Below are positions 21,998-64,000 of a DNA stretch of 64,000 bases, in pieces (within the stretch, counting starts at the first letter, position 1; each line of letters begins with the position of its first letter). The position numbers and the translations under genes are program-made. The notes beneath the pieces were generated by a model. It made no database searches. It was not told the DNA's origin and was given only the letters and a program-made list of their open reading frames with translations. This stretch comes from Marsupella aquatica. Its lineage: Eukaryota > Plantae > Marchantiophyta. Where the stretch lies: NCBI GenBank assembly GCA_973895155.1, contig OZ316894.1:23372709-23436708 (forward strand), given 5' to 3'.

Positions 21998-24900
21998 ATG
22001 GAGACAATTGCAGGAGGAGGAGCTCGGGTTTCGGCAGTTCCAGGGGCGTCGTTAATTCGCAGCGGCAGATTGCAGGGTCTTGGCGTCTCGCAGCCGGCCT
22101 CGTGCAGTTTGGGCAATGCGTTGGGGTGCCGTGGCCGGATTCGTGCCCGAGGAGGAGGAGCACGACCAGCTGCTGCTGCTGTTACTGCGCTGGTTAGTGG
22201 ACTGAGCGGGAGCGGTCTTCGCGTGTTGAGTACACCACTTCGGCAGCGGAGGGCGCTGAGGAGTGTTCCAATAAGCGCATCGTTGGATGAGAATTCGGTA
22301 TTTCAAGCGGCCTTTCTACGGTCTTTTTTTGGTCGCTTGTTCTGGTCAATGACGAGTGGATGTTTGGCACTTCTGTGTGTTGCTTTGATATAGGCATTCT
22401 TTGATGATGGATCGCTGGACCTCTCGGACTGTCATGTCTGTAAAGAACTCCTCAATTACCTCAATGCACGGTTCTAGACTGAATGAATGGGGTTTTAAGG
22501 TCATGCATCTTAGGGCAGTGCCATTTTCGGGCTTTTGACCTCCAATCCCCAAACTTCAATTTGAGCGTGTCAATCTATGGGCAGCAGATTTTTTCTCAAT
22601 TTTGCAAGGGTTAGGGACACAAGGTGCATTTTGTGTAGGCCCTCTAGCACGAGGTGGGAGATAAAGCGGGACCGTGCACTAGGGACACTTAATCCTACGT
22701 TTCATGATGGGATTTGGCCTCCGGACTGTTTAATCAGTGGAGGTCGGATGTTTTCTTGGTGGCATTCTGGTAATGGATGGACTCCTCGGAAATTGGAATC
22801 TTCAAAACCCTTCTTCCTAGGCTCTTCATTGAGATGAGGGATCTGGAGAAAACTTCATGACTTAGTCGTGGAACGGTCGTGTGCAATGATTGCAGATCTA
22901 ATGTTGCCTCGACTTGGCTTGGCTTTGCACTCGTCAGTTTGGTGGGTAGGATAAGCATTAAGAATGCCCTTCTGTTAGCGGTCTCTTTGAAAGTGGTCAT
23001 TGGTGATGGACTGCTGTGATGAATCAGACTAGTAAAATCCCAGAGAGGGTTGTGATGCAAGTAGTCTCGTCCTTATTCTGAGCAGTTCGGTCAGACTCTT
23101 CTGGGCAGATTTCACTTTCCCCGGTCTCTAAGGCTAGACAGGAATTTCAATTTAAGGACACGGTTGTGCAGGATGTCAAAGTCGAGGAGGCGACAGAAGA
23201 GCTCGAAAAGCAAGCTGAAGAATCGAAAGCGGCTTACAGTGAAGCTGTGGATGCATTGAAGGAGCAAACTATCAAATTACAGGAGTCAGCCAAGGACGCC
23301 TACGAACCTACAGCTGAGAAAGCCATTGAAGTTCTAAGAGATACAACAGAAAAATTGAAGGAAGAAGCAGAAAAGGCTAGGGTGCTATTGACGGCAACGG
23401 CCATCGAAACTGCTGAATTGGGTAAATCAAATCTGAATCTCTTAGCTGAAAGTGGACCAGATCCCTTCAAGGACATTGCGGAAACAGCTGTGAATGCTCA
23501 CATGAAAGAAAATACGAAACAGGGGGCGAAAATCCATGATTTCTGCCTGGGAATCCCTTACGGTAAGGAATTCATCTGTTTTATCATTGTTCTTCCTGTC
23601 ACAAGAGTTTTAATTGAATTTCGAAATTGGATCCTTTTTATGAATCGTTTCATTTTTACAGTGGTAAGCATTCAATTTACCATGTCCTTTACTGTGGACG
23701 GTGAAGCAAACATTGCTGTAGTGATATTCCGCAGACTGGAGATGTATGTTAATCTTGCGTTGTTTACTGTTTTGTTAGGGGCTATCATGGTCGCAGGGGG
23801 ACTTCTTTGGTTCATCATCACCGGAAGCACAGATGCTATTCGCTTTGGTGTTGTTCTAGGGGGCCTTTTGTTATTCTTGAGTGTCAAAAGTTTGAAGGTA
23901 TGGAAGGAGGGCAAGTCATGCATCCCGTACATTCAAGGCCAAGCAGGTAAATAACTTTTTTATTTTCCACCCGCCCGCTATTAATATGGAATGCGTATTT
24001 AATGAATTTTTCAATGTGGCCCAAGCGTCTGTCACTCGAATACAATGAAATGATTATCGTTGCTCAGGAGTCCAGCAGGGAGAAGAGTCCTAAGAGTCTT
24101 AATATGGTACTGTTTTAGTTTTATGTGGTACGTGCTAGCATAGGTCAGGTTGCGGAGATTCCGAGAGTGCTCTTTGGGATGCTTTCTAGGTGGTTGCTCA
24201 ATTCTGATGAATGGACGATGAATATCTGTCTTCGGCAGCTATTGCACTTATCATATTCGCGAAGGATGCACAGGCTTTTTTAAAGGTATCATGATGCTCC
24301 TTCTCTGAAAACGTTTTGTTTTTTCTGCTGAGTCCATGTGATCACAGCATTCTTTTATTCCATATTGTTTTCGACGTTCTATGAGTCTCGAGAATCGGTG
24401 AATTTTAGCTCCTGGGTAACGCTGAACGTTGATCTCCACAACTCGGGACCCACGGGGTCAGCATGACTTTATTGAATTGGGATTAAAAGGTCATGGCTTT
24501 GTTATAACATTACCCTTTGATTGAACGATGTAGACTGGAGCTCTATTCCCACCAGCAGTCTCAGCACTCGCCAGGTAATTCTACTAGTGAAACTTGTTGT
24601 CTCTATTTGACTTGGGCCGAAATATTGTCAAAGCTACCTCGAACGGTGCCTGTTCAGAATTGAGCAAGTAAAGCAATGGGATTATTCATGCTGCAAGTCA
24701 TGCCCAGAAGTCTTGTTTTGGTCATAAGATGCTTGCAGGTCACAGTTTACCTGAGGTCATGGAAGATGAGTTAGTGGAAATTAAAGATGATACCGTGGTT
24801 ATTGCATTGAATCTAGAGTCAGACAGAACCATGTTGCCTACGCACAACAATTCCTTATGGGTCTATAAATACATGAATATTGTTTTGAACATACAATGGA

Positions 24901-44699: not shown

Positions 44700-46275
44700 A
44701 TATGTATTTGTCGTGTAAATTGTTTGATAAGCAAGTGATATCTGCACAAATTGAATATCGTCCCATTGGCTCTGAAGGAAATACCAGCCTGGCTTGTGGA
44801 AACAGGATGTAAGATAAGTAGAGACGGAGAAGTACTCAAATACCTCGGTGCCCCTTTTGGTATTGGGCTGCAGATGGAGCATATCCATAGCTTTTGTTTA
44901 GATAAAATTGCCTCTCAACTAGCTTCATGGTCGAGCAAGATGCTTTCATTTACTGGTAGAACACTGCTCATCAAACATGTGTTGCTTGCAATCCCTATAT
45001 ACCATGTGATGTTTATGAAAGCCTCCAATGAACTAGAGAGGAAGATGATTGCTCTGTGTAGGGATTTCTTGTGGGGTATCAACCTCATGTGCACTGAGCA
45101 GAAGAATAAGCTCCCCCTGGTGGCGTGGGCCAACATGGCGCGACCCAAGGTGGAAGGGGGACTTGGATTTCATGACTCTGATGCCATTCAGAGGCGCTAT
45201 TAACCCAGTGGACCACGAAAGCTCTTGACTCCTCGGCCTCGGAATGGGCTTGTCTCTTTTTGGCGAATCTAAATTTGGTGGGCTGACAGAATTTTTGAAC
45301 AATTAGAAGAAATGGTTACACAATCAAAGACAAGTTACTTTTGTGGCGGAGGGATGCCATACTCGGGTGGCCTATGGAAGGCCTGGTCTCTCTGCGGGCG
45401 CATCTATGTTTTGTCCTTGGGGCTGCTGGATTTCCCGGTCGTTGGAGCATAGGGGATGCTCTCCGCTGTACAGTGGGTTTCCAATCCTGGTCGCAAGACC
45501 ATTTGGAAATTACTACGGAGCTACTTGGGAAGCTCGGAATTAAGGCTATTATGGACCTGTGGGATGAGGCAACCCACTCCTGGAGACCGTTAACAGAAAG
45601 GTGGCACAGACTACGTGGGTTTGACCTGGCTTACCGGGACCGCAGCAGGCTCTTTCTTCAAAAGATACGGGAACAAGCAAACTGTGACTAAGGATACGAA
45701 CCAGGTGCGAGAATGTGGCGTTGGGCTGATGATCAGAGGTCTTCAACGTATTTTAAAATACCCAATCATCGCATTTACCAGATGCTGAGGCCAAAAGGGG
45801 CTGATTATCAGAGATGGAACAGGATATGGGGCTCAGAGTACACGGAGACACAATGGATGAAATGCTGGGCAAATCTATGGCGATCTGATCTTTCTACAAG
45901 GGCTAAAACCTTCATCTGGAGAATTATTGTTGGAGGTCTCTTCACAGGCTCCCGAGCTCTTACCATCGAGGCGGACCCGGGGATCTGCTCCTTTTGCTTG
46001 GAACACCTGGAGACGATCCCCCACCTTTTCTTTCAAGAACATAGTAGCTGATACGTTAGAAATAGTCTAGCAGTGTGGGTATGTGCTCGTCCGACGGAAG
46101 CCTCCAGTAGATCCAGCATACCATGTCCATAACTGAACAAAAAGCCCTGTCCCACTTCAAGCCCAAAACTCCAGCATGTGGACGCAAATGGACAGTATGG
46201 CTAGCACGGAATGAACAGGTTTTCAAAAAACTGAATAAACATGCTTTTGATTTTAAACTTGTGTTTCCCAAATGA
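44700..46275 (+). mobile_element. L1-clade LINE ORF2 3' portion (RT C-terminus and zf-RVT), pseudogenised
   Basis: KYLGAPFG, LSFTGRTLLIKHVLLAIPIY, CRDFLWG, PKVEGGLG, WRSDLSTRAKTFIWRI, CSFC..LETIPHLFF. Several frameshifts. Confidence 0.9.
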
Positions 46276-46786
46276 GATTATATCTAGATCTATGATTGGA
46301 AATAATTCCTTTACAAGAATGGAGGGCCCATACAAGTTGGCTTTACAAGAACTCCCCTCTCCTGCATTTTTCTGTGGTAAAATTTGGCAAATCCACTTTG
46401 CTGGAAAGTGTTGGTCACTTTAATCAACATTTTCCTCTGTTTTTTTCACCGTGTCACCTACTGTCCCTCAATACCCAGAATATCCGGGAGTTATCCGTAA
46501 ACCTAGGGGAAACTAACTTTAGTGGTCAAAATTCAATCTAGGAAAGTCAAGAGGAAGCTAAGGGCTGTCTTGCATGTGCAAGAGTCCTGAGCAAAGCGAC
46601 CCTTACGGCCCACAGATGTCAGGGAAAAGTGGGAGTGTGGATCTAAACACAATCTTTGGAAGTTTACGTGTGACGTGCTCACTCCGTCGCATCTACTTCT
46701 TTGTCGTTCACACCGCAAATTCTACAGGGCAGGATGCAGGAGCTTCTACACTAAAACTTGCCCCTGCAAAGTCGATGCCTGCATAT

Positions 46787-46906
46787 TTCCGCATTACATG
46801 CGGCAATGCGAAGCAAAGTTCCGCATTACATGTGGCAATGGGTAGCAAAGTTCCGCATTACATGCGGCAATGGGAAGCAAAGTTCCGCATTACATGCGGC
46901 AATGCA
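46787..46906. repeat. Four ~32-bp tandem units, each containing the palindrome CCGCAT-TAC-ATGCGG
   Basis: ttccgcattacatg(c/t)ggcaatg...agcaaag repeated four times. Confidence 0.9.
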
Positions 46907-47084
46907 AAAACAACATAACGTGAAAGTGCCTTGCGCAACCTCACTCATTTCTGCTTGCTTCCTACTGTTTGGTCACTGCCGTTGCTCCTTGCCTCTGCAA
47001 AGTTCCATTGCGCTGCTGCCTTGAATCACAACATGCGCTCATGCCTTGATAGCTGCCTCAATACTTCACCCGGAATTGTTGATG

Positions 47085-47222
47085 TTTGCTCACTGCCGCT
47101 ACTTCGTTCCTTTGCTTTGCTCACTGCCGTTGCTTCGTTCGTTTGCTTTGCTCACTGCCGCGCGCTACTTTGTTCCTTTGCTTTGCTCACTGCCGCGCGC
47201 TACTTCATTCCTTTGCGCTGCT
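47085..47222. repeat. Tandem repeat tttgctcactgccg(cgcg)ctactt-gttcctttgc x4
   Basis: Four visible units. Confidence 0.85.
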
Positions 47223-47911
47223 GCTCAGTTGTACATGGGCTGAGAAACCTGAATTGGACTTGCACTCATGCTCACAGAGCACTGCTCGATACCGGACTGT
47301 TGCCTTCAATGGAAATCGTCAAGAACTCACTAGGATTGCTCCTTGTTGACTTCGTGTCCTTCGTCTTTCCTTAACGGTTGGTGCCAACATTTGATTCCAG
47401 GCACAAAATTTCTGGGAGGAGACTACTAGCCGTTCACACCTGATCTAAGCAAAGCTAATGTCAATGTTGCGACCTCTGTGAAGCAGCAAGTACTGTAAAG
47501 CAAGGACTTACAAAGAATTCCTCACAATCCTTGCTTATAGTGTTTCGAGTGTCACCTAACAATTCCTAACAGAATCTATGTGTACACTTGTCAAGTACTA
47601 TTTTTCTTTTGAACCCGTATATAGTAGAGTGTAGGTATTTTACAGACATACAAAGGATGAGTATATGTCCTAAGCTTTCCTTACTTTGATATGTACTTTA
47701 CAGAAATTCAGTGGTTACTTTGTATGCATGCACATCAATGCTCACAAAAATTAACTTCACTCTTTGCTACTACTTGGTTCACTTGTGTATGTCTAATTAA
47801 TTGGTTCACTCATTTATTACCCTCAATTTCTCTCTTGACTTTTGACATGTTCTTTCCATTAAATCACTATTGTGCAGGGCTTTTGAGTTCGGACTGTTTT
47901 GAATGCTCTCA

Positions 47912-49240
47912 AATGAGGAATGAGAAATAATATTGTCTATCATTGTTGCTCGCCAGCAACTGCTCTTGCTGCAACTGCAATTGGTCACTCTGGTTGCCAC
48001 CAATTCTTTACCACATAGACTGGTGATGACAACGGTACACAATTTGCAAATTTACTTCGACTCTTTCAAACTATTCAACATGCATTTTACTGAGATTATC
48101 ATCATATCTCTGGGAATTACATTGATCCTAGGTCAAGAGAGTGGAGCAGCTGGTATTTGATGCATGTCATCGAGCATGATTCTGTTCGTTTCAAATATTT
48201 GTTTTGAGTGTCACCGACAACATTCATGTACATTTGTGACCTGGTTAGAGAAGACATGACAACGAATCCAGCAATTTGACGAACAGGATATTGTCCGTTG
48301 AGCGTCAGGTTGTCATAGCCCTACGACAGTTTTCCAGTGGGTGTTTGCTACTGACACTTTCAGAGATGTTTGGCGTTTCCGTCCCATGCATATCAGATGT
48401 TGTTTGGCGATTTGTTAGGGCTTTAATTGTGCGAGGCAGAGGGCAACATTTGAGTTGGCCACAAGGAGAGGCCATGGCAAGGGTAAAAGAAGAATTTCGC
48501 CAATTGCAAGGATTTCCAAATTGTTGTGGTGCCATTGATGCCACTCATTTTCAAGTGGAGTTACCTCCTGGAACAAATTCTGCTGATTATCGTGATTACA
48601 AACATGGTCAGAGCATTTCCATGCAAGCTGTCTGTGATAGTCATCTTCAATTTTTGGATGTTTTTTCAGGATGGCCTGGCAGCATTCAAGACTCTCGCCT
48701 TCTACGGGTGTCTGGTTTTTTTAGTGATGTTATGGAATATCACACAAAACTCTCCGGTCCAGTATTTACTTCTCCAACCGGATTCAGTACAAGGGAGTAC
48801 ATTATTGGAGATTCTGGTTACCCTGCTTATCCCTGGTTGCTTAACCCTTTTCCTGCTACAACAGAGCATAGTCGCAAAAGACACTTTAATTATATGTTGA
48901 GCTCAACTAGGATGTGTGTGGAACGAGCTTTTGGGAATTGAAGAATAGTTGGAGATTTATTTCACGCAAGATGTATAGGCCATCTCCTTATCGACTAGCG
49001 CACTATATTACTTGTGCATGTATTCTTCATAATATTCGTATTGACCGTGGAGATGTGTACGATCTAGCTTGGGGGATAGATCCAAACCCTCCTTATGAAC
49101 CCGAAGGGCCCCCTGCTGCACATCATAATTACGATAATGGGCGTAGATATCGCATTGCAATGATGGATCATTTGTTGCCAGAGATAGAGTGGGAGGAACA
49201 ACAAAGGCGTAATGCTGCCCCTAGGGATCATAGATTGTGA
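47912..49240 (+). pseudogene. PIF/Harbinger transposase (DDE_Tnp_4, HARBI1-like), disrupted
   Basis: LF*VSPTTF, LSVERQVVIAL, GFPNCCGAIDATH, QAVCD, GWPGSIQDSR, YIIGDSGYP, FNYMLSSTRMCVERAFG, CACILHN. Stop at 48205 and frameshifts near 48275 and 48935. Start approximate. Confidence 0.92.
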
Positions 49241-49385
49241 TCACTTATGTTTTCACACATGTTTACGGAAAATTTGAAATAAAATTTGTGATTGAAATGT
49301 GCATCAAAGTGTCATCAAAGATTGTACATAGTTTCATGTCACTCTCAATTCAAGCACTGTCTACACAAACCAAACAAATGCTACT

Positions 49386-50498
49386 TTATTGTGAAGGCCG
49401 TGAAGAACTTGCAAGCTTCTCCGTTAGGACCTCAGTCAAACGTGTTATCTGCTCGGTTGTTGTCGTCATTGCTGTAGCCAAAGTCCTCTCTTGTCGCTCT
49501 TGGACCTGACACTCACGTTCTCGGATTTCACACTCACGTTCTCGGATGTGAGAATCATGTTCACAAATTTCACAATCGCGCTTGGCCGAGAAAGCCATGT
49601 CAACACAACTATTGGCCATGGTTTTGAATTGCGCTTGCCTATCTCATCCAAACTTGAATGCCTTTCGCTTCACACCTCTCTTGCTTGGGCCAGAAAAGTC
49701 CTGAGGGGATGATGGTTGTCTCACTCCATCAGTATTGTTGGTGTTCCCTTGTGCACTTTGTTGCATTGGCCTTGCACAATCAGCCTGACTAGCAGGTACA
49801 GACCTATCTTCATCAACGTCATCTTCATGATCACTTGCAAAACACAAAACTTGCTGCATTCAATAAAAGAAGACGGTAGTAAAGAAATTTAACTCATAAA
49901 CTAAAGATAGATACATTGTCTTGGGTAGCAAAGCACTTGTAGAGGTGAGAGTAAAAACTATCTTACTTTCTGACGACAAAATTAATGGATCCTCCTGGGG
50001 GTTTCGGTCCATCGAAGAAATGTCAGATAAGAATTGTTTAGGTGGAGTGATGCGCGGAATATCTGCATACCACTCCATCATTATCTCATACAAATCAATA
50101 GAGAAATTAGTGGGAAATCTCTTTTCGCGTCGCAACTTGTCATCCATGTTGAAGTAGGAAATCTGCCCAGTTTTCTGCAAATTCTCATAGTCATAAATCA
50201 TTTTGAACTTGCTGTCAATGAGCTGCCACTTCTTCTTACAACTGTTGTGATCTCGAATAGGATTAGTGAACCCCTCATCCTCCATAAATTTTGCCATTGC
50301 TTTCCATTTCAACTTAGTGCTGGTCATCTTCTGCTGAGTGGAGCCTCCCAGTACAACAGTATGGTACTCATTTTTTTTTGCTGCAATAAGAGCCTTCATC
50401 TTTGTGTGAGTCCAATCTGGCAACTTACTCTTTCCTTGAGGTTGTGATGCACCTTGCCATGAAGTTGTGCCTTGACCACTCTAGTTTTGGCTTGTCAT
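49386..50498 (-). pseudogene. Harbinger-associated Myb/SANT (trihelix-like) DNA-binding protein with C-terminal coiled coil, disrupted
   Basis: DWTHTKMKALIAAK...KWKAMAKFM...RDHNSCKKKW...SYFNM...FPTNFSIDLYEIM. ATG at 50498 follows an acceptor and has an in-frame TAG at 50481-50483. Intron donor at ~49966; IRERECE repeats at the C-terminus. Confidence 0.85.
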
Positions 50499-50600
50499 CT
50501 GAAAGCCAAAAAACAATATGCAAATTACTTTGTCAAAAAGTTACAAAACTAATGGACAAAAAAGGGTATAACCACCGTGCTAGCAAATAGTAAATAGATA

Positions 50601-50775
50601 TTCTCATACGAGCCAATTTTGCCTCGTACAAGCAAAATTTTGTCTCGTACAAGTAAACAAGTTCCTCGTATGAGCATATCTATTTACTCGTACGAGTTTC
50701 TGTTTTCTTGTATGAGTTTCTATTTTCTTGTATGAGTTTCTATTTTCTTGTATGAGTATTTTTTTTCTTGTATGC
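50601..50775. repeat. Array of CTCGTACGAG-like palindromes decaying into (ttcttgtatgagtttctatt)n
   Basis: ctcatacgag, ctcgtacaag x2, ctcgtatgag and ctcgtacgag, then cttgtatgag repeats at ~20-bp spacing. Confidence 0.8.
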
Positions 50776-50940
50776 ATTTTAGTTTCTTCTCTTCACGGTA
50801 TGTAGCGTCCATATATGCAATAATTGTGCGGACAATATTATGGTGGGTCCCACCATTGTACAACATCAGAGGAAATTTCTTGACGATTTCACACAAGGAC
50901 TCCAATATATTGCCACAAAATATGAAGTCGAAACAAAGTC

Positions 50941-50973
50941 ATACAATACTAGCGCCTGGCGCTAGTATTGTAT
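50941..50973. repeat. Perfect 33-bp palindrome ATACAATACTAGCGCC-T-GGCGCTAGTATTGTAT
   Basis: The 16-bp arms are exact reverse complements. This is the first copy of the dispersed palindrome family. Confidence 0.95.
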
Positions 50974-51064
50974 TATACAAAAAAACAACACTTTAAGAAC
51001 TCACACTTCTGCCCGTTAGAAAAGACAAACTACAATTGTAGCTGTTCAACGATAAAGCAACAGT

Positions 51065-54000
51065 CTACATTCTCGTTCCCAACTGCCTATCAAGTATGTA
51101 ACGGACTTCTCCCAACGTTAGAATTGGCTGGCTACATAATGTCGAATTGAGCACATCCAGTTCGAACACATTCTTGAACACCCAATACACATGTTTGCAA
51201 GGCATGTAAGGCTTCCGATAAGTATGCCGACGGTAGAAATCCTCGCAAGAGCAACATGGGAAACAACATATCTGAACCCAATAAGAGGTGACTGATCTCT
51301 CATGTTCATGGGTCCGGATACAAAACTGTTTCCCCGACGCATTTCCACTCGTGATCTCTCTCTCTCCAATGACGCTCATCACTTCTTTTTCAGAGGCTTC
51401 AATTCTCTTCAAATGTGTTTGGGTAAGATGCACTCTTTGCAAGCATTTCTTCCCGTTCCTTGAAGCGCACCTCACAGATGGGTCAGTAAGGTTGATCCTC
51501 TCCGGGAAAAGATTGACATCAATCCGTAATGCAGAAGGCAACGGTGCTTCGATTTCATCTCCACGGCCTTCGGAGAGAATAAGTCCTTGTTCTTTCAAAA
51601 ATTGAATCTCTGCTCCAGAAAGATTGGTCCCTCTGGCAATTGGGAGATGTGAAGGAACATTGGGAATGTTCGAGACTCCTCTCCTTGTTGTGCTTCGGTG
51701 ACAGTGGTTGTTGGGGAAAAACCATATCTGATCGTTATAAGGTTGCCCCCTGAACATTCTGCATCCTCTCACGGAAATTGCAACAACACCATCTGGATTC
51801 GGAAGGCCAACCTTCTTTACTCGATTTCAACATTCATCACGACTACCTCCCCATCCAAGGGTTCCGTTACACACTGGACCCGCACCCCGTTTTGAGGTCC
51901 AACGCAACTGCCAGGCACCGGGAGGTACTTCACTTTCCATTGGGGAAATTGAATGACAATATGCAGTCTCGACAGGTCTTGCAGGCGTCACTGGTGGGAC
52001 AGAGGATCTTGTTGCTCAATGCGTAGGTGTGTCAATGACCACAACTTCCTCAGAAGCATCGCTTTCTGACAAATTATGGACCGCATCAATTCCACCGGCT
52101 GAAGGCGTAGAAGGCATTTTCTCAAAATCAGTGGAATGCAGGTTTCTCCTTTTCAAACCTTTTGTATTTGGTGAAGTAACAAGGATGGTATCATGCCTGT
52201 GCGAGTCTTCTGCTGAGACGTTCCCAGTTGCATGTCCTTTTCGTTTCACCGATCAAGTTACAACATCACCATTCAATGGAACGCTTCTTTCCAAATCAAA
52301 CTCAGCAGCGTTTGACAGGAGGAGATTGGTGGCTTCCTCAAAGAGATGCGATGACCCCGCTAGGTCCACCGATCTGAAGGCAAGCTCAAAAATAGTTGGG
52401 CCAGTTCCTCTGCTCAATCCCCTTTTGTATGCAGTATAAGCAGCAATTTGAGCAACCACTCTATTTTGGTCCGTTTTGCATCCTTCAAACAGACCAACCA
52501 TTTTTTCTGTTGCCATGCTTTCATTCCAGTATGCCTAGATTCCGAACCAGTACAATTAGGAATCATCCCAGCCTCTTCGGCACTCTTGCTCTGAAACATT
52601 GCACGCAAGGGTTTAGTACATGTAAGAAATTGCACACAAAAGTGGCAACACAATGGAAATAACAATAGTGCCAGACGCTAATAAACTGATGATGATATTT
52701 CCATGTAAAGAACCGTTTAACATAGAATAAAGGTAGTCCTTACATCACTCATAGTCCAAACGGATTATTAGCGCTCGGCGCTACTATTGCGGATAAGGAA
52801 CTCTTCTATCTCACACATGCTTCACTAGTGCGAGCGCTATTAATGGGAACATGCATCCTAGAGCAGTGTATAACTCACCAGTCTTATGAAGTTCCCCCAT
52901 TGTCTCCATCGGACAACCCACCAAGAGAGCCACCCTTGCAGCATCCGAAGTTTGCCTGAGTGACAATTGCCAGACCTCCACCAGTCATCGATTTCCCTCG
53001 AGATTCGATATGCTTTCAAGAAAGTTGGCGCATTCCGAAGATGATCCCACATCTCCTTGTGCTCTCCGTGCTTTCCATCTTTTACACCTTCTCGGGAATG
53101 ACAATGAAAAGATTGGAAAAAATGAAAGGCATCTGATCTTTCTCGCTCTGGGTCGGGTACACCGTCAAAGAACATGTTTCAAACAACATTCCAACCAGCC
53201 TGAGCATTGTCCACCATGAATCCCCGAATTGCAACATCCTGTAAACCATTTTCATAGGCAACCTCTAACATCAAACGCCAGGCTCTCTCCAGAGATTTTG
53301 CATCTTCGGCCTTTAGCTCACAAGTGAATATGGTGCAAAGTGCCCGGTAATGATGATCATATACATGGGCACTGAAAGTAAGCCAATCTGCCGTGCTTCG
53401 ATGCATCACGTGAAAACTTACCCATGAACCCTCTAACGACCCACCAGGTTTCATTCTTTGGAGCAAGTCCAGACCACTCCCGTCACCTTTTACGGTCATT
53501 TTAAAGATATGAGCACTCTCGTCCCGACAGCCTTGACCAGGGAGCAAGAACCTATGAAGAAAAGGCAGTCGGATACACTTTTGCATCCTCACAAGAAATT
53601 CCAATTCCCCTTTCCCCTTCTGATCTTGACGGACACTCCTTAACACGGATGCAAACTTCTGAGGAGATGCGACAACCATCAGGGACTCCCAGATTTCCTT
53701 CTCTTCTTCAAGAGAGATTTCTTCAACATAGGTCTCGCAAAATGTATTCGTCAGTGTCTCAGTCGTAGAGTTTTTAATCCCTGCTGGGGATGCCATGGGG
53801 TTTGCAGTGAATCCCTTCTCCAGATGAGACCTTGCAACCTTTTATGCCTCCCTCGGAAAGACCCATCGACTAGGATGATTGTGAAATCCCATATGAACAG
53901 CTAGTCGCGACATGTGGGCCAAAGACTTAACATCAACTTTTGCAGATGGATACATGTAGAACATTAGAGCAGGGCAGGCCTCAACGCACATCGGAGGTTC

Positions 54001-54879
54001 GGAGCAATGGTGAAAAACAACTCCACCTTCGGAGATCAATTCCCCAACTCGGAATGGGCCCGAAAGTTTTGGGGTTCTTGCCCACATCTCATTATTTCGA
54101 AACTTGTTGTCTTTCCACCACGGACAAGCATTATTTCGACACTGCAGCGATCCCGTACACTGGACTTTCCCGAAATCCCACATTTTCTTTGGAAGAACAT
54201 TTGAAGACGTTTTCACAATCCGAGTCCAATAATAACAATCCTTACCACGATCCATATCTTTCAAACGTTCACCTTTTGCGTTCACACAGTCTACCGGGGG
54301 TAACTCAAAAACCACATTCCCATTGTAAGATGTGGGAAGAGTAGGCACTACGTGATGAACAAAATCACTCCCCCTTATAAACCAAGACAATTCACTATGA
54401 CCTTTGGATTTCAAGATTGTATCCATTGCACTCTGCCGGTACACAGTCAAAGGCACAATCATTTCTTGATCCGCATTAGACTCCTTTTTAACCTCAGATG
54501 GGTAAACTGGAATCTTCTCTCCGAGAGTAGTTGTCGCTTGCTTATCATCTCCAGAACTTTCCGAGAGTTCGATGACATCGAGTTCAGCCGTTGTGGGAGG
54601 ACGAGTATAGGAGGCCCCAGAATCTCTCAAAACAAAAACCTCATATTCTTTCTGAGCCTCCAGAGTCCAATATCTTTGACCATGAACAACATCGTAGAAA
54701 ACTGGACTCTCCCCCAAACAAACCGACACTAATGAGATCGCTAAAATAGACTCCTTGGCGACATCAAATCTCACTCCCAGATATTCCTCTAAAACACGCT
54801 TTGATTCAGATGATTCGAGGACGAGAATTGTGATTACATCCCGAGTGTCCTTCCTCGTGACAACGATATTTTGAGCCAT
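51065..54879 (-). pseudogene. Mutator(MULE)-like transposase with N-terminal WRKY/GCM-like Cys-His region and C-terminal SWIM zinc finger; one intron 52591-52878
   Basis: ORFs 53842-54879, 53179-53796 and 52858-53175 are one frame broken by single stops. Motifs: CTGSLQC..C...CPA...VHMGFHNHP; GFMVDNAQAGWNVV*NMF...AFHF (MULE-like D..A..A..VF..FH); SWIM CSCEDF...PCKHVYWVF. Frameshift in the A-run near 52505 and further lesions downstream. Confidence 0.75.
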
Positions 54880-55054
54880 GGCTTCAAAAGAGGGATATGC
54901 ATTTGCCCCACGCGAAATGAAATATGTTTATCATGAGATTCGAGTACAAGAAGTAAACGTTCCATTCTCATTATAGAGTCGTTATAGATTTGGACGCACT
55001 CCATCAATGACGTTTTGTCATCTTACCAACGGCAGGATTCGGGTTCATAGTTAC

Positions 55055-55200
55055 TAGCGCCTGGTGCTACCTCTAAGTGTAAAACACTCTTGGGTGAGGA
55101 CTACGAATGCCAATAATAATAGTGCCTGGCGCTACCTCTAGGTGCAAACATTCTTGGGTGAGGAGTACGAAGGCAATAAATAATAGCGCCTGGCGCTACC
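55055..55200. repeat. ~65-bp tandem repeat with three TAGCGCCTGGCGCTA-type palindromes in the divergent promoter region
   Basis: Palindromes at 55055, 55120 and 55184, separated by near-identical spacers (cctcta-gtg-aaac-tcttgggtgagga-tacgaa-gc-aataa). Confidence 0.9.
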
Positions 55201-55659
55201 TATTTCAATGGACTTGAAAACATTCAATGGAAGGATAAGTACGATAACGCGATACAGTACGAGTCATTAAGTTGGCACGCTTGAAGATCTCCACTGGATC
55301 TTCGCGAATCCGATCCGCTCGGGTCCAAATGTGTCAGAGAGGAAGCGTCCATGAAAGTTATATCAGAGGGTCCTCTTCGAAGTGGGTACCCAAGACCAAG
55401 TGCGAACTCTCCTTATATCTAGTCGTTCTCCTCTGATGTCCTCATTGTCAAGCCATTATTCACTGAGTCGCAGTTGTGGCTCATCTTTCGGGCGCCTGGT
55501 TCCCGTTCTCGCTTTCGAGCCCAGTTGTTCTTTTTTGCTTTCGTGCGCGTTCTTGTTCTCCTTCTCGTCCTTGTTTCTCATTCTCGTCCTAGTTCACGCT
55601 GTTGCCCTCCTTCACGTTCTTGTTCGTGCTTCTTGTTCTCGTCCTCATCCTCACTTTCA

Positions 55660-56425
55660 ATGGCACCTCCACGAGGGAAGGCAAAGGAGGAGGCACTTGT
55701 CCCGAGCGACATCAACCAGGAGACCCCCGCATCAAATAGCTTACCGCCTCGGCCGAATGCCGAGAGGATGACGGTTCCAATCTCGAAGAAGGGGAAACTC
55801 ATCTCAAAGATGAAGAATGCCCCAACTGTGGGCCGCAGCGAAGGATCCAGTCAGCCAAATGCGAGCGGCCCGACTTCTGTTCCCGCTAGGAATATCGCCC
55901 CTGCTTTGTTGAACTAAAACGTCATTCGCAACGACCATACAACCATGACTCATTCCATGCACACGTAGTCGACACAATCTCTACGTGGTTCACCTCTTCT
56001 CCAAGGTTATGTTCACACGAATACTCAAGCTTTACTTCAAGAGTAGACGAACACACATGCTCTCTCTCTTCCTCAAGTTGCTCCGTTACAATGAGTAAGC
56101 ACCACACACTAGCGGCTTACACTAGTCTTGGTATATACAAGGTCATACACGACTAACCTAACCTCAGCTAAGACACTAACTGTGGTTAGCCTAAGTGCCG
56201 TAACCTTTGAGTCACAAGACTAAGAGCAATCCTTAACATGCTTCAGTCGGCCGTCCAAGAGCCGACACCATCTGCACGGGAGTCTCCGTATCTTCTTCAT
56301 CCACTGAGAGTGATCGTTCTTCGAGCGGGGACTCATCACCGAGCAGGCGAGGATTTGCGTGGTATGGATCGAGCGACTCGAATGACGACTTCGATGCGTA
56401 CAAGCCAAGTTGGTGGGAAGACTGA
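55660..56425 (+). pseudogene. Small low-complexity (Ser/Pro/Lys-rich) ORF of unknown function, split by a solo LTR
   Basis: MAPPRGKAKEE... follows a CT-rich leader. Removing 55907-56238 and one TSD copy rejoins the frame (..NIAPA|SVGRPRADT..AYKPSWWED*). Confidence 0.5.
55907..56238. mobile_element. Solo LTR (332 bp) with 5-bp TSD TGCTT
   Basis: TGTT...AACA termini; tgctt at 55902-55906 and 56239-56243. Related to the copies at 7051 and 7494. Confidence 0.9.
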
Positions 56426-57574
56426 TTTCCCATTGTCAGAGCGTATCGTTTGAGTGCTGGAGAGACTTGGAGGATCCATCGAGGTTGATAGGATCTATTT
56501 CCACTCGTTTTTTTCTGATAGAAAACCCATACCGTTCCTTCCTCGTATGCCGGATTTCTAGTGTACTGTAATATTTTGTATATGAACGGCACAGCCGTTC
56601 GTTTTTACCTTGGTGTCAATGCTTTTGAATTCAAAAGACCAAGCTTTAATTTTGGGTTCTACTCCCGTGTTTGCATTGTATTTCTGAATGTGAACCTGAT
56701 CTATTTCTTTGAAATGGCCGTAAAAACTCGTTTGCTGTCAATGTTTTTACTAGCGTTCGGCGCTATTATGAGAAACAAAGTGTCCGTAACACTATCGTGA
56801 CATGTCTTATCTCTAAAGTGTTTTTGATAGCGTTGGGCGCTATTAATGAAAGGAATCACAAGTCAAACCCGTTCGGAGTTATTTTTACTTTTATTTCAAC
56901 AAATTCTGTTCAATTGATGTGCATTTTAATAGCGCCAGGCGCTATTGTAATTCATTGGAATATTCGTTGAATGAATGGGTTCATGTGGTCATGTTTGTTG
57001 TCATTGGACTCCGATTTCATCATTTATTTGAATACTAGCGCCGAGCGCTACTAAAGTTGGCTTGTCGACACCTGTACAAAATTGGAAAATTTATAGACAA
57101 TTGTGTTGATAGTACTGCCCGTAGCTACATTAAGATGGTTTTTCAGATACATTTGAAAGTATGTTGTATAATAGCGCCTGGCGCTATCCACAACTACCGA
57201 CACTGATGTGGTTCCAACGGTCACTTTCCAACGGTAATATTATAGTAGATTGAGGTTCACAGAACCCTTTTTGCTTTTGTCTGGGATGAAAGTCCAATCG
57301 GAGAATGCCATCTGTACTTGGGACCGTTGTAATCGAATGGCTGGTTCTATTGTATCGGTGTCTTAATACGAGGTGGAGATCGCTCGTTTGGGATAATTTA
57401 GTCCGTCTACGCGCTCAGACCTCGGACTGTACGAGTTTGTCAAGTGCGTATGTGCGTCCTTTATTGGTCCCATACATTTTGAGACGTGATCGTCACAAGA
57501 ACTGCACGGCGCGTATGACAATGCCGGGTGGTCGAGTTGCTCTCCACGGCAACTTTTGGCTGGGTGATACAAGA

Positions 57575-60500
57575 ATGGGGGAGGCTGATGGTGGTCATTC
57601 TGATTCCTCTCAGTCTTTGTTCGCTGGTTTAGTATACACCCGTCGCGTCACTCCATCAATTGCGTCCCTATCAACTTCCGAAGCTGAATCTACACAGCCC
57701 TTCCCGAGGTCGAGGAGAGGGAGAATGGACCCTAAGGACGTCTCCATGGGTGAAGTCAGTGACATAGGCTTATCGATGGATGAGGTAATATCAAAGCACG
57801 CATTGTCGTTTGGGAAGGATTTTTGAGGATTCAATAAGGAGCCACCTCGAATTCCTCTTTGTAGATTGCTCCCCATGGAGGTTGTTCGAACCTTACAAAA
57901 AGAAAGTGCATCGATCAAGAAGTTGAAAGAATCATTCTGTGTCACCGGGTACAACTCGCGCATTGGGATGCCTTTCTACGTTCAGCCTGCGAATGCCGAT
58001 GGGGTTTCTCAGATATGCGCCAGCGAGATCCGGGACTCTTGGGATCCAATCTGGGTCGCAGAGAACGACAAGTTTGAGGAAGAGTGTGATGCGGACCCAG
58101 CGTTCCATATTCTAAAAGATAAAATGTTTTGTGTGTTTGACGGAAATCATCGATTGTACTCGTGGTCAATCGTCACGAGGGAGAATCCGGACAACTTGAA
58201 GTATCATCCTCGTGTGATTTGCGTCATTTTCAATGGTGACAGAGGTTTGCTAGTTGAGTTCGAGGCGGCAATGCACACCGTGAACCAGTAAGTTCTATTC
58301 GTTAACTATTGTTACCCCTGTCATTCATTTTGGACCAAACATGCTTTGCGAAAGTGTTCATTCCCCAATTTTTGCTAGCGCCCGGCGCTACTAATTCCTT
58401 TTCATTGCATCTAGGCTTGGACAAGCAGTCGTCGAGCCTTCCTGGATTCTTGACGTGGACAGAATTTCCCAAATTCTGTCGCGTGATCTTGATCACTATA
58501 AGCCACTCATCGATAGCGCGAACATGGCAAAGTTTGAGGTGATCCAAAAGAAGACGAGAAAGGGGTCTTGGTTTACACATAAAATGCCACAGGATGCTCT
58601 CATCTACATTCTGTGTGTGGACAAAATCAAGTCTTACTCAAATCAATTTAAGTCTGATATGGCTTTAGCCAAAGCTCAAGGGGCTTCTTGGTCAGAAGAG
58701 GAGACCACAAAGAGGCATGAGGCAATGATGAAGGAGGCGACCAAAGATTGGTCGATCAAAGTGACGAAGATCACCCCTTTACTTCATCCGGATTTTGGAG
58801 ATTATTTGGGAACCTGTGCTGAGATGTATCCCGTAACTGAGAAGAACAAACGGGAGAAGAAGCCAAACACAGTTGTATGCACAATGGATCGAGCCAGGTT
58901 GTTTACTGCTGTTTCATACCTGGATCCAAAATTGAGGTGCACCCTTCTAGTAGCCCACTGCACTCCCGAGATTCGGAAACAGTTTTTCCATCCTGCAAGT
59001 GTCAACGACAAGCCTGTGAAGCAGTGGTGCCATACATGGCATACTTGGAATTATGTGGAGGGAATTGCAACTGGAATGCTTCACACTTCCTTCAAACAGA
59101 TTTCTGACCGGATGCCGGCTGACCGTCTCACAAAGTCTGGGTGTGAGTCAATGGAGGCCATGCTTAAGATCATTCTCGATGAATTCAGAAACTTTGGGGA
59201 TCTTGTCAAGGCAAAATTCTTCAACAACTTGTGGCCTTCCAAATATGCGGACAAGGAAGATTACACAGAGCGGAACCGGAAGAGAGCCAAACGATATCTA
59301 TACCAGTTTTACATGTGGATGGACCTTAGATCTCCTGACACTCTGTGGGCATACCCGGCTGCATTTCAGAAATGGGTGTCTATCGAAGAGGGAGACGCTC
59401 TTGCCGACCTTTATTCGATGTACCCAACGGAGGGAAAGTTTCCACCATGTTCATTGTCGGAGTGGGAGAGACTTCACTGTCCGTGGTACCTTGACACAGA
59501 CAAATGGGATTTACCGTTCGACGAAGCTGAGAAGGATGCCTTCATGAAGTTGCAGAAGTCCCAGATCCCTGCCAACTATGTGTCTGCAATGAAGCAAGGT
59601 CTCCAGTCTGATGTTGACGAATCTGCATCTGAGTTACAGAAGAATTGTGAGTCTCTTGTCATGCACGTTGACCGAAGCCGTAAGCCAAGAGCAAAGGCGA
59701 AGAATGAGTCAGCTGCACCAAGTGACTCCACAAGGTCCTTCAAGAAAAGTGAGTAGTCTAAGCGCTTTTTGGTTACTTGTTGGCGCTACTTATGCAGGAG
59801 TTTCATTAGGAAATTCCTTTGATTAATAGCGCCTGGCGCTAGTCTGAAAGGTTGGACTCATTCAAGTTTCTGTGCCTAACAGGAGGTCGGAAGTCCGACA
59901 CAAAGGTCCCGGCTGCCGAAGGGAAGAATGATGCAACTCCTCAGGCATCAGAGGCAAACACTGGAGCTCAAGAAACCCCAGATCAAGGGACCCCGGATGG
60001 TGCTGGTAAATCCATTGTCCCTCTTGACGCAACTAGCACGAAGAAAAAGAAAAAGAGAGGCGCCGGTGAGGACAGAGCAGCATCATCTACTCGAGACGTT
60101 ATTTCCTGTGGACTCCAGAGAGATGTCGGGAATTTTAAGCGAAGGTGTTCTAGACACTGTTTTGTGGAGTCCAATTTAAACGAATTTTATGATTCGGTAT
60201 TTAACAAGGGGATGAAGCCCATGTGGGTTACTAAAGTTGAGGCCTGGGGAAAGGAATTGGTAAAGTCAGGAGACAGAGAGAAGGGAGTAATACGTGGCGG
60301 AAAAGAGAGGGGCTTTGGTGTGGATGCTGGTTTCATCTACATTCCCACTGGATTAAAACCAACACTTCTTGATCGGAAGGTTCCCAAGTGGAACCTTCAG
60401 GATTACACTATTCCCAGCTCTTTCTTCCGAGCCATGGAGCCGTTCCTTGCAGACGATGGCCTACTTGCAATTTTACACAGAGGAGACTATGATCAGGTAT

Positions 60501-61336
60501 CTGAAGTGATTGCGGCTTGCCAGGATTCTAAGTGTTTCCAGTGTATTTCAGCCCACCATGTGGTCATGACTACACCAATGTATAGGCCCCGATCTGATAC
60601 TCAGGTAACAATTCCTCTTGCACATACGAGCGCCCGGCGCTACTATCAGCATTCGCAATATCTACAATTCACTTATCTTTTGTAAGGATGAATGGTTGAC
60701 TAGCGCAAAGCGCTAATATATGTGTTTGTTTTCTTATATTGCCTTCATTGGGAAACTGTGTTGCAGATATTCACACTTACTCTTAATATATTTTGCCGCA
60801 TTTCGACAAAGGGAAGGGTCCCGAAAGACCCCAAGTTCCGGCCACTATCGAATGAAGAAGACCCTTCCGTCACTAACATTATTGGGTTTTCGTTGCCGCG
60901 ACATGACCCGACTCCTGAGCTCCAATTTGCAGGAAATTCATGATTGCCTGTGGGTTTCATGCAAACTATTTTGGAATTGGTGACTCTTCCTGGAGATATC
61001 GTTATGGACTGGACAGTAGGTTCCGGTAGTACGTTTGTGGCTGGAGATTATTCTGGTCGCTTTGTTGTTGGGCTGGAAAATCGGCCAGAGTTTGTTGATA
61101 CTTCCGGTAAGGTCTTCCTCGATCTTTTACAGAACAAAGAAGTGGTTGCACCAACTCCTCCTAAGAAGATTCTTGGAAGTAAGAAGCTGGACAGGCTCCG
61201 TGCTATTCTAAATTTTGATTCGGAAGACGAGGATGAGGGTGGCAATGCTTCTCAGCAATCTAAAGATGATGAGGTGTCGAAGAATGTGGTGGACCTTGGA
61301 TCTGGAGATGAGGACAGTGAAGAGTCAGAAGAGTAA
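57575..61336 (+). pseudogene. ParB/Srx-like domain + beta-class N6A/N4C DNA methyltransferase-like fusion; exons 57575-58287, 58415-59748, 59883-60604, 60767-61336 (~1110 codons, two in-frame stops)
   Basis: Three GT-AG introns keep the frame. ParB-like VFDGNHRL at ~58133-58156. MTase-like VDAGFIYIPTG...FLADDGLLAIL, then FMQTILELVTLPGDIVMDWTVGSGSTFVAG...GRFVVGLE (SAM-binding motif I after the motif-IV position, i.e. beta order). Stops at 57824 and 60941. An in-frame upstream ATG exists at 57305. Confidence 0.8.
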
Positions 61337-62378
61337 TTTTCTTTAGCTTTCTTTCTCTCATTGTATACTTTTTTCCAAAGAACTCCTCTACTCCCTTTTG
61401 TCTAGAAAATTCGCCCGATTTCCCGACTTTGACTAAATAACTCCAGTTCAAATTCTCAGGTCAGAGTGGAATCTTCAGAGGCGTTTTCAACTTTGAAGGA
61501 ACGTCTCTAGGAACATTGTACAGACCCCGGAGAAGCCATTTGTTCTCCCCTCTTATGCTGAAAAGGCGGCACGACGGGCAGATTCAGTCAGGACGCTTAC
61601 TTGGGAGAGTAAGGGTCTTAGACTCAGGAGAGGCTCAGATAGAAAGTTTGTGCAGAATCACTTCGTAGATGATATTGCAAAATCAAAGTATGTGGACGAC
61701 GAAGCAGAGTCCACTGATAGATCAGAAAGTAGCGGTTCTGAATCGGGCTCAGAGTCGAGTGGTGGTTGTGGATCTGGTCTTTAGTTTTCCTTGTTTTATT
61801 TACCCGTTTATGGAGAACGACGACACTCAATAAGACGCCGTGACATGTCGGATTAGAGTAGCGCCCGACGCTATTACTGTAGCCGGTAGTTCAAAGAGGT
61901 TTTTATTTGGTTGTTTTCCTTATAGCGCCCGGCGCTAGTATAAATGTACTCAATGGCCACTTCACGTCCAATATATGTGACAATATTTTCATACCCTTCG
62001 GTGTCTTTTTTTGGGTGCACATTTGCTGGTATGAGTTTTGCTGTTTGCTGTTTACTGTTTGCTGTTTGCTGTCACGGAGAGATCCCCCGACAAAAAAAAA
62101 ACAAATTGAGTCTCTGAAACATATGTAGAAGCAAACATACAAATTCCCAAACCACAAGAGTGCTTGAAAAAAAATCATTGCAAATTAAAACCATGGACTT
62201 TACTACTCATTCAAATTTTGCCAAAAGTTGTCGAAGCAAAGTTATCCCCGAAGTTACAATTATCAAAATAATCCAAAATGGTACATAGAAAGAACATTGT
62301 AAATACTAGGTCTTATGAGTATAACCCTCTATGTATCTAACTTTGAGGTTTCTTTTTAGCAAGGTAGTGCTTCTCCAA

Positions 62379-62941
62379 TCAAGGCCCAAGGTCTAGAGAA
62401 TCATTATCCAAGCAAACTTTTTTTCTACATCTCACAGGAATAGCATCTCGGTCATGAGTTGATGGTCCTGTACTATTTGACACGTATGATGTATCTATTG
62501 CATTAAATGGAATTTTTCCATCCAACACATGTGTCTGTCCTGAATCTATCCTCCGGTAAATAAACCTTGAAAGGTTAGGAGAAATAGGAACTAAAGGTTC
62601 TCGTGCTACTTTCACAACTTTTCTCTCTCGTACATTCTCAAAAAAGTCTGGTTTGTGCTTCTGTCCTCTCCTCTGTAGGATCTGAATGGCCTCAAATTGC
62701 AAGCCTTCCAAGGTCTTGTTGTCTCTATGAACCTGCTCATTTTCCGCTTTCAACCTCTCAATCTCATGCTTCAGTTGTTGGGTCTCTCTACCAGGGTTTT
62801 GGAGTTTGACACCTCCTTCAACAAGGCAGGCCATAGCTCCTCACAAAACATGGACTCCATGTGAGTGAAGTATTCTTTCGTCTCTTTACACTTTTCCAAA
62901 TACATCTTAGCAAGATCCTTCAAGTTATCTCTGCTAGCCAT
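62379..62941 (-). pseudogene. Small coiled-coil protein of unknown function, with a probable 1-bp frameshift near 62785 and a spliced 5'UTR
   Basis: MASRDNLKDLAKMYLEK... continues as ETQQLKHEIERLKAENEQ in the adjacent frame. Acceptor ttttcctttcag at ~62958; CT-rich leader at ~63220-63480. Confidence 0.5.
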
Positions 62942-63379
62942 TGTGTCCAACCTGACCCTGAAAGGAAAAACCAAATTTGACACTAAAGTTTGCATGAATA
63001 GTTTAATATATAGCCTGCTCGGTATGTACAAGGTTGGTGCATACAAGTACTCATAATTCGTGCACAAGTCTGTCTACCTACCACAAAGGCAAAGAGTAGT
63101 CACAAACTACAATTGTGCACTCGCTCTTCATGGCCTCCTTGTCAGTTTCGAACTAAATTTTTTGCCTTCTAGTACATGGCCAATTTTACAAGTACTGTTA
63201 CAGTTTGGATTATTTACTCTCTCCTAGTGAAACTTGTCTATGAACGCGAGTAGAGAGTATAGTCGGGGTTCTGGTCTCTGCAGTACTAATCGGGGCCCAA
63301 AGCAGTTCACGGAATGAAAGGCACTGAAGTCTATGACTTCATAGACTCTCCACATAAATGATCGAGTTCCAGTCGAAAG

Positions 63380-63475
63380 CAAGGAAGTGAGATGAAGTGA
63401 AGTGAGATGAAGTGAAGTGAGGACAGGAAGCGAACGGAAAGGAAAGGAAAGGGAAGGAAGAAAGGAAGGAAGGAA
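63380..63475. repeat. Purine-rich microsatellites (gtgaa/gatgaa)n and (ggaa)n
   Basis: Directly visible. Confidence 0.85.
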
Positions 63476-64000
63476 CACCAACGACGCAGCGCAGCTGGGT
63501 CTGCTGCTGCTGCTGCCTCAGGGCTTTACTGAGAGAGCTGAATTTTTTCAACCATATGTGCGATGCAAGAGCCTAACAATTCTACAGCGCTATCAAACAG
63601 AAATCAGGATCGAATTGAATGTCGCTGCAAACATTCAATGTGATGGCGAAATTCAATACTTCACATGCGGAGCTTCGTATATGACAGAAACACAGGGATC
63701 TCCAAACCTTGGTTCTTAGATCGAGTCCACAGCAAATCGTTGGCTCCTGGATGATTGACAATGTTCTCCACAGACTATCCTGCACCGGTGCTAGAATGAC
63801 GTACAACGCTCTTCTTGCCAATCGTGAATTGTTGATGCAATAATGCTGACAGCCTTCCCGAGATTCAATTTGCATGAGAACTCAATTCGCAGCCTTCAAT
63901 CGTTTGCATTTTTCACCTTCAATTTGCAGCCTGTCTGTGTATTTCTACGTCCGTGAAGGTGAGCGATCATGTCTTGACAACCATATGCAGGGGCTCCTGG

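Follow-up and report, generated by a model that had tools for sequence, protein, structure and literature searches.

ParB-like accessory genes are known from transposons of algae. In Ectocarpus, the element Sola1-1_Ec32 has a gene for a 1104-amino-acid (aa) protein with ParB-like and N4C/N6A methyltransferase domains opposite its transposase gene, and its authors propose that proteins of this type attach to the element encoding them and modify it (PMC12477816). Plavaka elements of Bostrychia bear a ParB-like accessory gene beside tandem inverted repeats, with homologues in Mutator elements of Chondrus (bioRxiv 10.1101/2025.02.11.637652). Iyer et al. (2016; PMC4738411) list chlorophyte and chytrid Dam-type enzymes fused to ParB domains with a helix-turn-helix, as well as DIRS1 elements whose methyltransferases are inactive. 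Here, a stretch of 64,000 nucleotides of the liverwort Marsupella aquatica (contig OZ316894.1, positions 23,372,709 to 23,436,708 of the forward strand; hereafter the window) is described. It holds a degraded member of a multi-copy family of Mutator-like DNA transposons, which carries a transposase gene, a divergent accessory gene with ParB-type and methyltransferase folds, and 18 copies of a 15-bp palindrome. All positions are those of the window, and published systems are cited from the accessible parts of their texts.

The architecture is that of the algal ParB-type accessory systems, likened by description and not by comparison of sequences. Sola1-1_Ec32 shares the domain pair and the position opposite a DNA-transposon transposase, and its protein is of similar size (1132 aa here). 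However, it is a Sola-1 element of 21.5 kb with a 4-bp duplication in a brown alga, whereas the present one is Mutator-like, 11.5 kb long, has a 9-bp duplication and resides in a land plant; moreover, its accessible text names no target motif (PMC12477816), whereas the palindromes are defined here. The Plavaka genes PAG2/PAG3 are similar in that a ParB-like accessory protein, proposed to bind its own element, lies beside inverted repeats, and these accessory genes move among transposon superfamilies, Mutator included. In those elements, one gene joins ParB to a 2OG oxygenase and another joins the methylase to SET, whereas a single protein unites ParB and methyltransferase here, and the repeats are tandem arrays beside PAG3 instead of palindromes across all modelled introns and intergenic parts. 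A preliminary description of this locus knew of no report of the architecture, though it did not exclude one; the architecture is in print for algae with the same proposed function (PMC12477816; bioRxiv 2025.02.11.637652). In the literature searched, which covered few subscription papers, no land-plant description of such an element was found; Table 6 of the Bostrychia supplement may list plant cases. What is new is the land-plant, Mutator-like carrier, the defined 15-bp site in every modelled intron and an active site that is non-canonical across the family. A 2011 paper by Iyer et al. is reportedly the one cited for green-algal cases.

The VANDAL transposons of Arabidopsis, which have the VANC anti-silencing system, are themselves Mutator-like, and Mutator-like elements generate target-site duplications of about 9 bp. 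VANDAL elements contain, besides an accessory gene (VANC), short motifs that are specific to each family and lie in non-coding sequence (introns, intergenic and terminal parts), some of them as tandem repeats (PMC5735166). The analogy drawn in the preliminary description holds for the placement of motifs, the feature compared; VANC motifs are 8-9 bp long and non-palindromic, and binding and demethylation are proven there and inferred here (PMC5735166). Phage fusions of ParB_N and N6_N4_Mtase domains have the two folds in the same order on mobile elements (PMC12704722). Three of them (L033, L035, L036) are 409-510 aa long with DPPY or SPPY, whereas the present gene is split by introns, encodes an additional helical stretch of 430 aa and departs from the canonical motif IV, and its ParB domain is barely detectable against phage ParB_N (hhalign probability 7%). 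MpDN4MT1a/b of Marchantia and the bdelloid N4CMT are also bacterial-type permuted amino-methyltransferases in eukaryotes, one case being a liverwort. These, however, are host genes with intact SPPY and proven N4-methylcytosine (4mC) activity, not transposon cargo, and no ParB-fold fusion is mentioned in their accessible texts.

Structure, insertion site and copies of the element

The element was placed at 50564-62088 (Table 1) because of an empty site, the 9-bp target-site duplication GACAAAAAA and the GGG..CCC ends. One contig of sequencing run X1 and two of run X2 represent the empty site, joining 50563 directly to sequence matching 62100-62129, although the junction has two A fewer than a strict reading of the right duplication. 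The right end was inferred by combining the duplication with the empty site, not from fine-scale read placement.

Evidence for copies came from public sequencing runs, six of which contain the stretch or part of it; X6 holds a small share only and was excluded from the depth ratio. Within 46000-64000, the element had 8 (X1), 10 (X2) and 30 (X4) times the summed contig depth of its right flank, alike over the transposase and accessory genes, the ratio being a sign of repetition and not a copy number. At fine scale, depth climbs about 7- to 37-fold across 50550-50570. In all four runs concerned, from two studies, 5 to 10 contigs per run break off before 50564 with flanks unlike one another (agreement 0.40-0.47). 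Copies of the element are dispersed at many different sites.

The two divergent genes and the roughly 18 palindromes of the preliminary description were found again, and the shared ends, the 9-bp duplication and the empty site support the view that a single multi-copy DNA transposon carries both genes. The reading as a single-copy host gene unlinked to the transposase was rejected. The idea that palindromes delimit the element was abandoned, as the true ends lie 386 (left) and 151 (right) bases beyond the outermost ones. The extent of 50941-61937 given before is therefore too short, and it took no account of a short open reading frame (ORF) split by a solo long terminal repeat (LTR) or of a conserved downstream ORF. 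Ends at 50797/61995 were also rejected: they rely on a short GGTATG/CATACC match with no duplication, and depth runs on leftwards.

The subterminal repeat type CTCGTACGAG has eight matches across the whole window, every one in the left array of Table 1. Its unit number differs among element copies in the public-run contigs, and the array is a candidate for transposase binding.

Table 1. Coordinates of the element and its parts in the window
Feature	Positions	Strand	Remarks
Whole Mutator-like element	50564..62088		11,525 bp; loose contig ends, empty site, duplication
Left target-site duplication GACAAAAAA	50555..50563	+	9 bp; read from window
Left degenerate terminal inverted repeat	50564..50597	+	GGG at start; 22/34 bases equal the reverse complement of the right end
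Eight subterminal 10-bp repeats, type CTCGTACGAG	50603..50756		Second palindromic motif; left end only, ~20-bp spacing
Palindrome, 1 copy	50950..50964		Downstream of transposase gene
Transposase exon 2	51065..52590	-	C-terminal SWIM-like Cys/His motif; frameshift near 52500, 3 internal stops
Palindromes, 3 copies	52666..52839		Transposase intron; at 52666, 52769, 52826
Transposase exon 1	52879..54879	-	667 codons; Cys/His-rich N-terminal part and MULE-like catalytic core
Palindromes, 3 copies	55055..55198		Upstream of transposase start; 64-65-bp tandem units
ORF3 (putative)	55660..56425	+	142 low-complexity codons with LTR removed
Solo LTR	55907..56238		332 bp, TGTT..AACA; 5-bp duplication TGCTT; inserted in ORF3
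Palindromes, 5 copies	56751..57186		Upstream of accessory gene
Accessory exon 1	57515..58287	+	Low-complexity N-terminus, stop 57824-57826, then ParB/sulfiredoxin-fold domain 57827-58287; motif DGNHR
Palindromes, 4 copies	58376..60715		Three accessory-gene introns; 58376; 59827; 60628 and 60701
Accessory exon 2	58415..59748	+	Conserved, mostly helical domain
Accessory exon 3	59883..60604	+	Basic linker, N-terminal methyltransferase half; YIPTG in place of motif IV
Accessory exon 4	60767..61336	+	C-terminal methyltransferase half, S-adenosylmethionine (SAM)-binding motif DWTVGSG, stop 60941-60943, acidic tail
ORF4	61497..61784	+	Conserved short ORF without ATG
Palindromes, 2 copies	61859..61937		Downstream of ORF4
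Right degenerate terminal inverted repeat	62055..62088	-	CCC at end; 22/34 bases against left end
Right target-site duplication GACAAAAAA	62089..62097	+	9 bp; window and empty-site contigs

Transposase gene

The transposase gene starts at 54879 on the minus strand and has one modelled intron (52591-52878). In the window copy, it is interrupted by five internal stops, those of exon 1 being at 53842-53844 and 53179-53181, and by one frameshift. The stop at 52016-52018 reads CGA in nearly all of the depth of each of the four runs, and some copies in X1 and X4 carry one extra base at 52500. Since other copies read otherwise, this stop and the frameshift are not common to the whole family.

In the ESM Atlas, the catalytic core was nearest to MULE/ZSWIM RNaseH-like clusters (0.92 and 0.90) and all 10 named matches belonged to one clan; the shared features numbered 145 and 158, under the guide value of 170. 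The Pfam scan of the transposase returned no MULE and no SWIM match, and the core had no match in plasmids. A candidate second Asp and a candidate Glu of the core are taken by us to be those of a DDE triad, with the first Asp not placed. The SWIM-like CxC..C.H pattern of exon 2 was spotted by eye; its CKH part is kept in L027, a metagenome locus discussed below, to which exon 2 is 42% identical over 45 aa. The 9-bp duplication, the degenerate terminal inverted repeats and the dispersed copies are all features of Mutator-like elements. Based on the ESM Atlas placement and the 9-bp duplication, the transposase and the element are likely Mutator-like.

Accessory gene and predicted folds

The accessory gene is divergent from the transposase gene and consists of four exons with predicted GT-AG introns (1132 codons), of which codons 104 and 1002 are internal TGA stops. 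As both genes are interrupted in the window copy, neither protein would be made from it and it could be acted on only in trans.

The domain at 57827-58287 gave 226 library matches at E ≤0.001 in HMMER, and its model, built from 75 sequences, had a pLDDT of 94.7. In VIA, the best 10 of 19 matches belong to the ParB/sulfiredoxin superfamily, with KorB at Z 7.5 (root-mean-square deviation 3.0, 95 aligned), PadC at 7.0, sulfiredoxin at 6.8 and SerK at 6.3, and the first unrelated match at Z 2.6. All 34 rows listed by Foldseek are superfamily members as well, none of them at an E of 0.001 or better. As modelled, the domain has the ParB/sulfiredoxin fold, a nucleotide-binding module common to ParB, sulfiredoxin and SerK. 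Sequence searches of Pfam, NCBIfam, PHROGs and the PDB gave no significant match to it (best E 0.06 for phrog_1033 and 0.15 for DGQHR). The Arg of DGNHR is kept in 61 of 75 aligned sequences and would be equivalent to the Box II arginine of ParB.

The 430-aa middle part encoded by exon 2 had five relatives at 33-47% identity, and its model (pLDDT 58.6, best Z 6.8) showed no clear fold. A canonical ParB clamp binds CTP, loads at a palindrome and slides, and it has a central helix-turn-helix and a C-terminal dimerization domain; the helical region behind the ParB-type fold of the accessory protein gave no clear match. No longer relatives turned up when exon 2 and the N-terminal methyltransferase half were used as queries.

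The methyltransferase domain matches PF01555 at E 9.6e-9, over the Pfam cut-off, and its C-terminal half matches DpnA, CcrM, MboIIA and PvuII in the PDB (E 6e-4 to 0.011). Over the domain length, hhalign gave 98% to eight phage beta-class enzymes, which had been selected by means of the C-terminal half; used by itself, the N-terminal half also aligns in register, but weakly (p 0.008). With the permuted beta-class order IV..X-I-II and the glycine SAM-binding motif present, the C-terminal domain is a beta-class N4/N6 methyltransferase fold. Both folds named in the preliminary description were thereby supported.

Catalysis is a different matter. Motif IV reads YIPT in the window copy and DLPT, DLPT, DMPS, DMPT, DVPF and DFPI in the six relatives compared, so that none of these sequences has the canonical (D/N/S)PP(Y/F/W); the Tyr for Asp may be private to the window copy. 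Methyl transfer is doubtful because the aromatic residue of motif IV is generally missing (5 of 6 relatives). An active amino-methyltransferase that writes 4mC or N6-methyladenine (6mA) at or around the palindromes, marking its own element, is considered unlikely. For such an enzyme speak the full beta-class order from IV to X-I-II, a glycine-rich SAM motif both here and in the Riccia proteins P0163/P0164 (DFAGGWG), and motif IV itself, whose Asp and Pro are retained by all six relatives, with a final Phe in one of them. In addition, phage enzymes with DLPY exist (L032, L034), and both bdelloids and Marchantia have proven 4mC enzymes of bacterial origin. On the other hand, the aromatic position is Thr, Ser or Ile in five of the relatives and Thr here, in addition to the change of Asp to Tyr, and an HPTQKP-type motif X is not kept. 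Moreover, the proven eukaryotic enzymes have SPPY, and altering it abolishes activity (PMC8885841). The earlier proposal of a DNA-modification module stands as to the fold, but modification itself is doubtful. The family-wide loss of the canonical catalytic motif suggests that the accessory proteins may be binders and not writers.

Palindromes and their placement

In the window, TAGCGCNNNGCGCTA (TAGCGC-N3-GCGCTA) has 16 matches at ≤1 mismatch, all within 50950-61937, compared with a mean of 0.02 and a maximum of 1 in 100 shuffles. A 17th palindrome, at 52666, has two mismatches, and the 18th, at 52826, has a 2-base spacer, which an extra C at 52830 in X1, X2 and X4 turns into a 3-base spacer. 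Family copies without these deviations have C at 52669 and an additional C at 52830. In 28 of 34 cases (strands pooled), the spacer base adjoining an arm is C or G; any base can stand in the middle, and AT-rich sequence surrounds the palindromes. In each of the four runs, the spacer at 50950 is variable, and its arms showed no variant among 40 of 42 rows. The term 'parS-like' used before is adequate for the palindromic shape, but no likeness to parS was shown.

All 18 palindromes lie outside the modelled coding parts, although these make up 69% of the element; the naive p of 6e-10 for this placement is overstated, since the motif holds a stop codon in one frame. Seven are in introns, with all four modelled introns represented, eight lie between the two start codons and three are downstream of genes.

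Binding of the palindromes by the transposase, for synapsis or activation, with an accessory gene acting elsewhere or non-specifically, has a small probability in our view. The transposase has a Cys/His-rich N-terminal part, the AtMu1 transposase binds a motif and activates cognate copies (bioRxiv 2026.08.24.746577), and the deleted relative L027 retains palindromes at its transposase end. However, AtMu1 binds terminal repeats (bioRxiv 2026.08.24.746577), and the ends of the present element carry other repeats, the palindromes beginning 386 and 151 bases inside. Furthermore, 11 of the 18 are upstream of, inside or downstream of the accessory gene (56751-61937), and the inverted-repeat arrays of red algae adjoin the ParB-fold gene (bioRxiv 10.1101/2025.02.11.637652).

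Even less probable is that the palindromes act as nucleic-acid hairpins (in splicing, RNA stability or cruciforms) or as host-factor sites, the accessory gene being unrelated cargo. Accessory intron 2 and most of intron 3 do fold better than shuffles (z -3.5 and -2.05), but the remaining two of the four folded intron stretches do not (z 0.09 and -0.71). Eleven of the 18 palindromes are outside introns, and the exact arm sequence and the 3-base spacer are kept, which a hairpin does not need. The same palindrome is repeated in unrelated bacterial-type and plastid-type contigs, an argument for this reading; a general host factor is nevertheless unlikely because the other 52 kb of the window has three matches at two mismatches and none at ≤1. 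Rfam returned no family match.

Relatives and distribution

Twenty ParB-domain matches were looked up, 13 of them with an organism name: 8 from Riccia sorocarpa and 5 from Adiantum, annotated as unnamed genes only. The Riccia sorocarpa protein R1sor_027256 (P0163, 1207 aa) has all the parts, with 25.6% identity over 1137 columns. Long relatives of the accessory protein came from the HMMER search only, and at least 3 of its 150 listed matches (P0036, P0066, P0078) are unrelated repeat proteins. An alignment search with exon 2 of metagenome, genome and viral contigs gave no confirmed relative.

P0005/P0009 (one cluster, 34% identical to exon 2) continue beyond the exon end into LAPGAS, a peptide that the palindrome encodes, with 0.7 such matches expected among all 168 proteins. 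To judge from this peptide, they probably have a palindrome in the equivalent intron. In Adiantum capillus-veneris, P0132 (GOP47_0020039) combines a ParB-type domain, a methyltransferase remnant and an FCP1/NIF phosphatase in one gene model, which may be a real fusion or an annotation join.

Scanning for the paired-palindrome pattern yielded 31 loci in metagenomes and nothing in viral contigs. Only L027 matches proteins of the element: the tail of the transposase and ORF4 (34% identity over 90 aa) are arranged head to head, with three exact palindromes within 1.3 kb. This locus is read as an internally deleted distant relative, which would link both ends of the element and the motif. ORF4 also aligns with the C-terminus of the Riccia protein P0033 and is possibly a fifth exon of the accessory gene, whereas ORF3 had no relative among the 31 loci.

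Among the other 30 loci, most of those scanned carry ordinary prokaryote-type genes, one is plastid-type and several are unclassified. In the plastid-type contig (L017:1-1921), in which small photosystem and ATP-synthase-like genes were recognized by eye, repeats between the genes contain the TAGCGC-N3-GCGCTA core, and other loci have it in REP-like bacterial repeats; in both cases, it is probably unrelated to the element. In L006, L010, L021 and L022, 4 to 8 palindrome copies are spaced at 27-31 bp. The ORFs scanned in L010, L021 and L022 gave no Pfam match (those of L006 were outside the scan), and the four loci may be repeat arrays of other elements.

Proposed function

The explanation preferred here, tentatively and with somewhat less than an even chance of being right, is that the accessory protein binds the 15-bp palindromes of its own element and shields the promoters and introns of the family from host silencing by 5-methylcytosine (5mC), probably without methyl transfer. 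The transposase would move the unit by cut and paste, as the ends and the duplication suggest. A dimer of the accessory protein would read the two-fold symmetric palindrome, the nucleotide-binding ParB/sulfiredoxin fold may gate loading or spreading, and the methyltransferase fold would grip the CG-containing GCGC arms and block the host 5mC enzymes.

The VANC-like placement of the motif, the conservation of its arms and the CpG-rich centre of the element are counted in favour, with the same reserve. The observed/expected CpG ratio of the central 2.2-kb region is 1.07 (palindromes and LTR masked), compared with a maximum of 0.89 and a mean of 0.56 in 96 overlapping windows elsewhere. By analogy, the self-binding that the algal authors propose for equivalent proteins would also fit.

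Several observations weigh against this shielding role. The CpG ratio is no higher near the palindromes at 100-300 bases (0.76-0.79 against 0.74-0.76 farther away), and 500 bases is the sole distance with a contrast (0.80 against 0.66). Since CpG is flat near the palindromes, the CpG-rich centre may be an ordinary promoter. Seven of the eight arm deviations in the window copy are C>T or G>A; because of these, and of the stop at 52016-52018 that reads CGA elsewhere, this copy looks methylated in the past. The predicted ParB fold is about as near to sulfiredoxin and SerK as to KorB. Bacterial ParB reads parS by a separate helix-turn-helix (PMC12704722), and neither this nor another known DNA-binding fold was found in the accessory protein, the exon-2 model being of low confidence. 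L027, the sole relative with DNA context, is without the ParB and methyltransferase parts. Finally, silencing can also be lifted by a Mutator transposase that binds its own element (bioRxiv 2026.08.24.746577).

A more elaborate form of the shielding proposal seems improbable to us: land-plant Mutator elements would use a nucleotide-gated, ParB-fold clamp that loads at the palindromes in all introns and promoters and spreads, carrying the methyltransferase fold along the element, where it would cap CG sites or write a mark via the DxPT site.

Other features of the window

The element sits within a Harbinger element with DDE_Tnp_4 at 48249-48938 (E 8e-22) and Myb/SANT at 49863-50480 (E 9e-7). 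Parts of this host element were noted in 47800-50563 and 62098-63100, and its two genes face each other and contain stops. According to the empty site and a joint in X4, its sequence resumes right of 62098; two more minus-strand ORFs in this right part (62379-62840 and 62771-63073) gave no significant family match. Joints that skip 337 bases in X1 and X4, as well as a depth peak in the LTR bin, point to an insertion of the solo LTR in the window copy. It belongs to a very abundant retrotransposon family and its CHG content is strongly depleted (0.33).

Farther away, two tandem receptor-kinase-like genes with lectin-type ectodomains were recognized by eye from ORFs at 9066-12114 and 16698-20005, the second with a C-terminal tandem peptide repeat; such receptor-kinase-like ORFs point to a plant host. 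A tandem repeat at 21143-22055, which includes the units QITASK and SSCVHPNYSVK, can be read through in more than one frame, and decayed non-LTR retrotransposon-like coding fragments were seen by eye at 44700-46100.

Implications

The near full-length relative in a named liverwort genome, R1sor_027256, makes the proposal directly testable by binding and methylome assays. If true, the accessory protein would offer a compact means of controlling DNA methylation locally and in a sequence-specific way. The element extends the algal ParB-type accessory class to land plants and provides a 15-bp candidate site together with exact element ends. Should the load-and-spread mechanism, doubtful as it is, prove correct, it would represent a second, independently built plant anti-silencing system, found in liverworts as well as ferns, whose target sequence is known from the outset.

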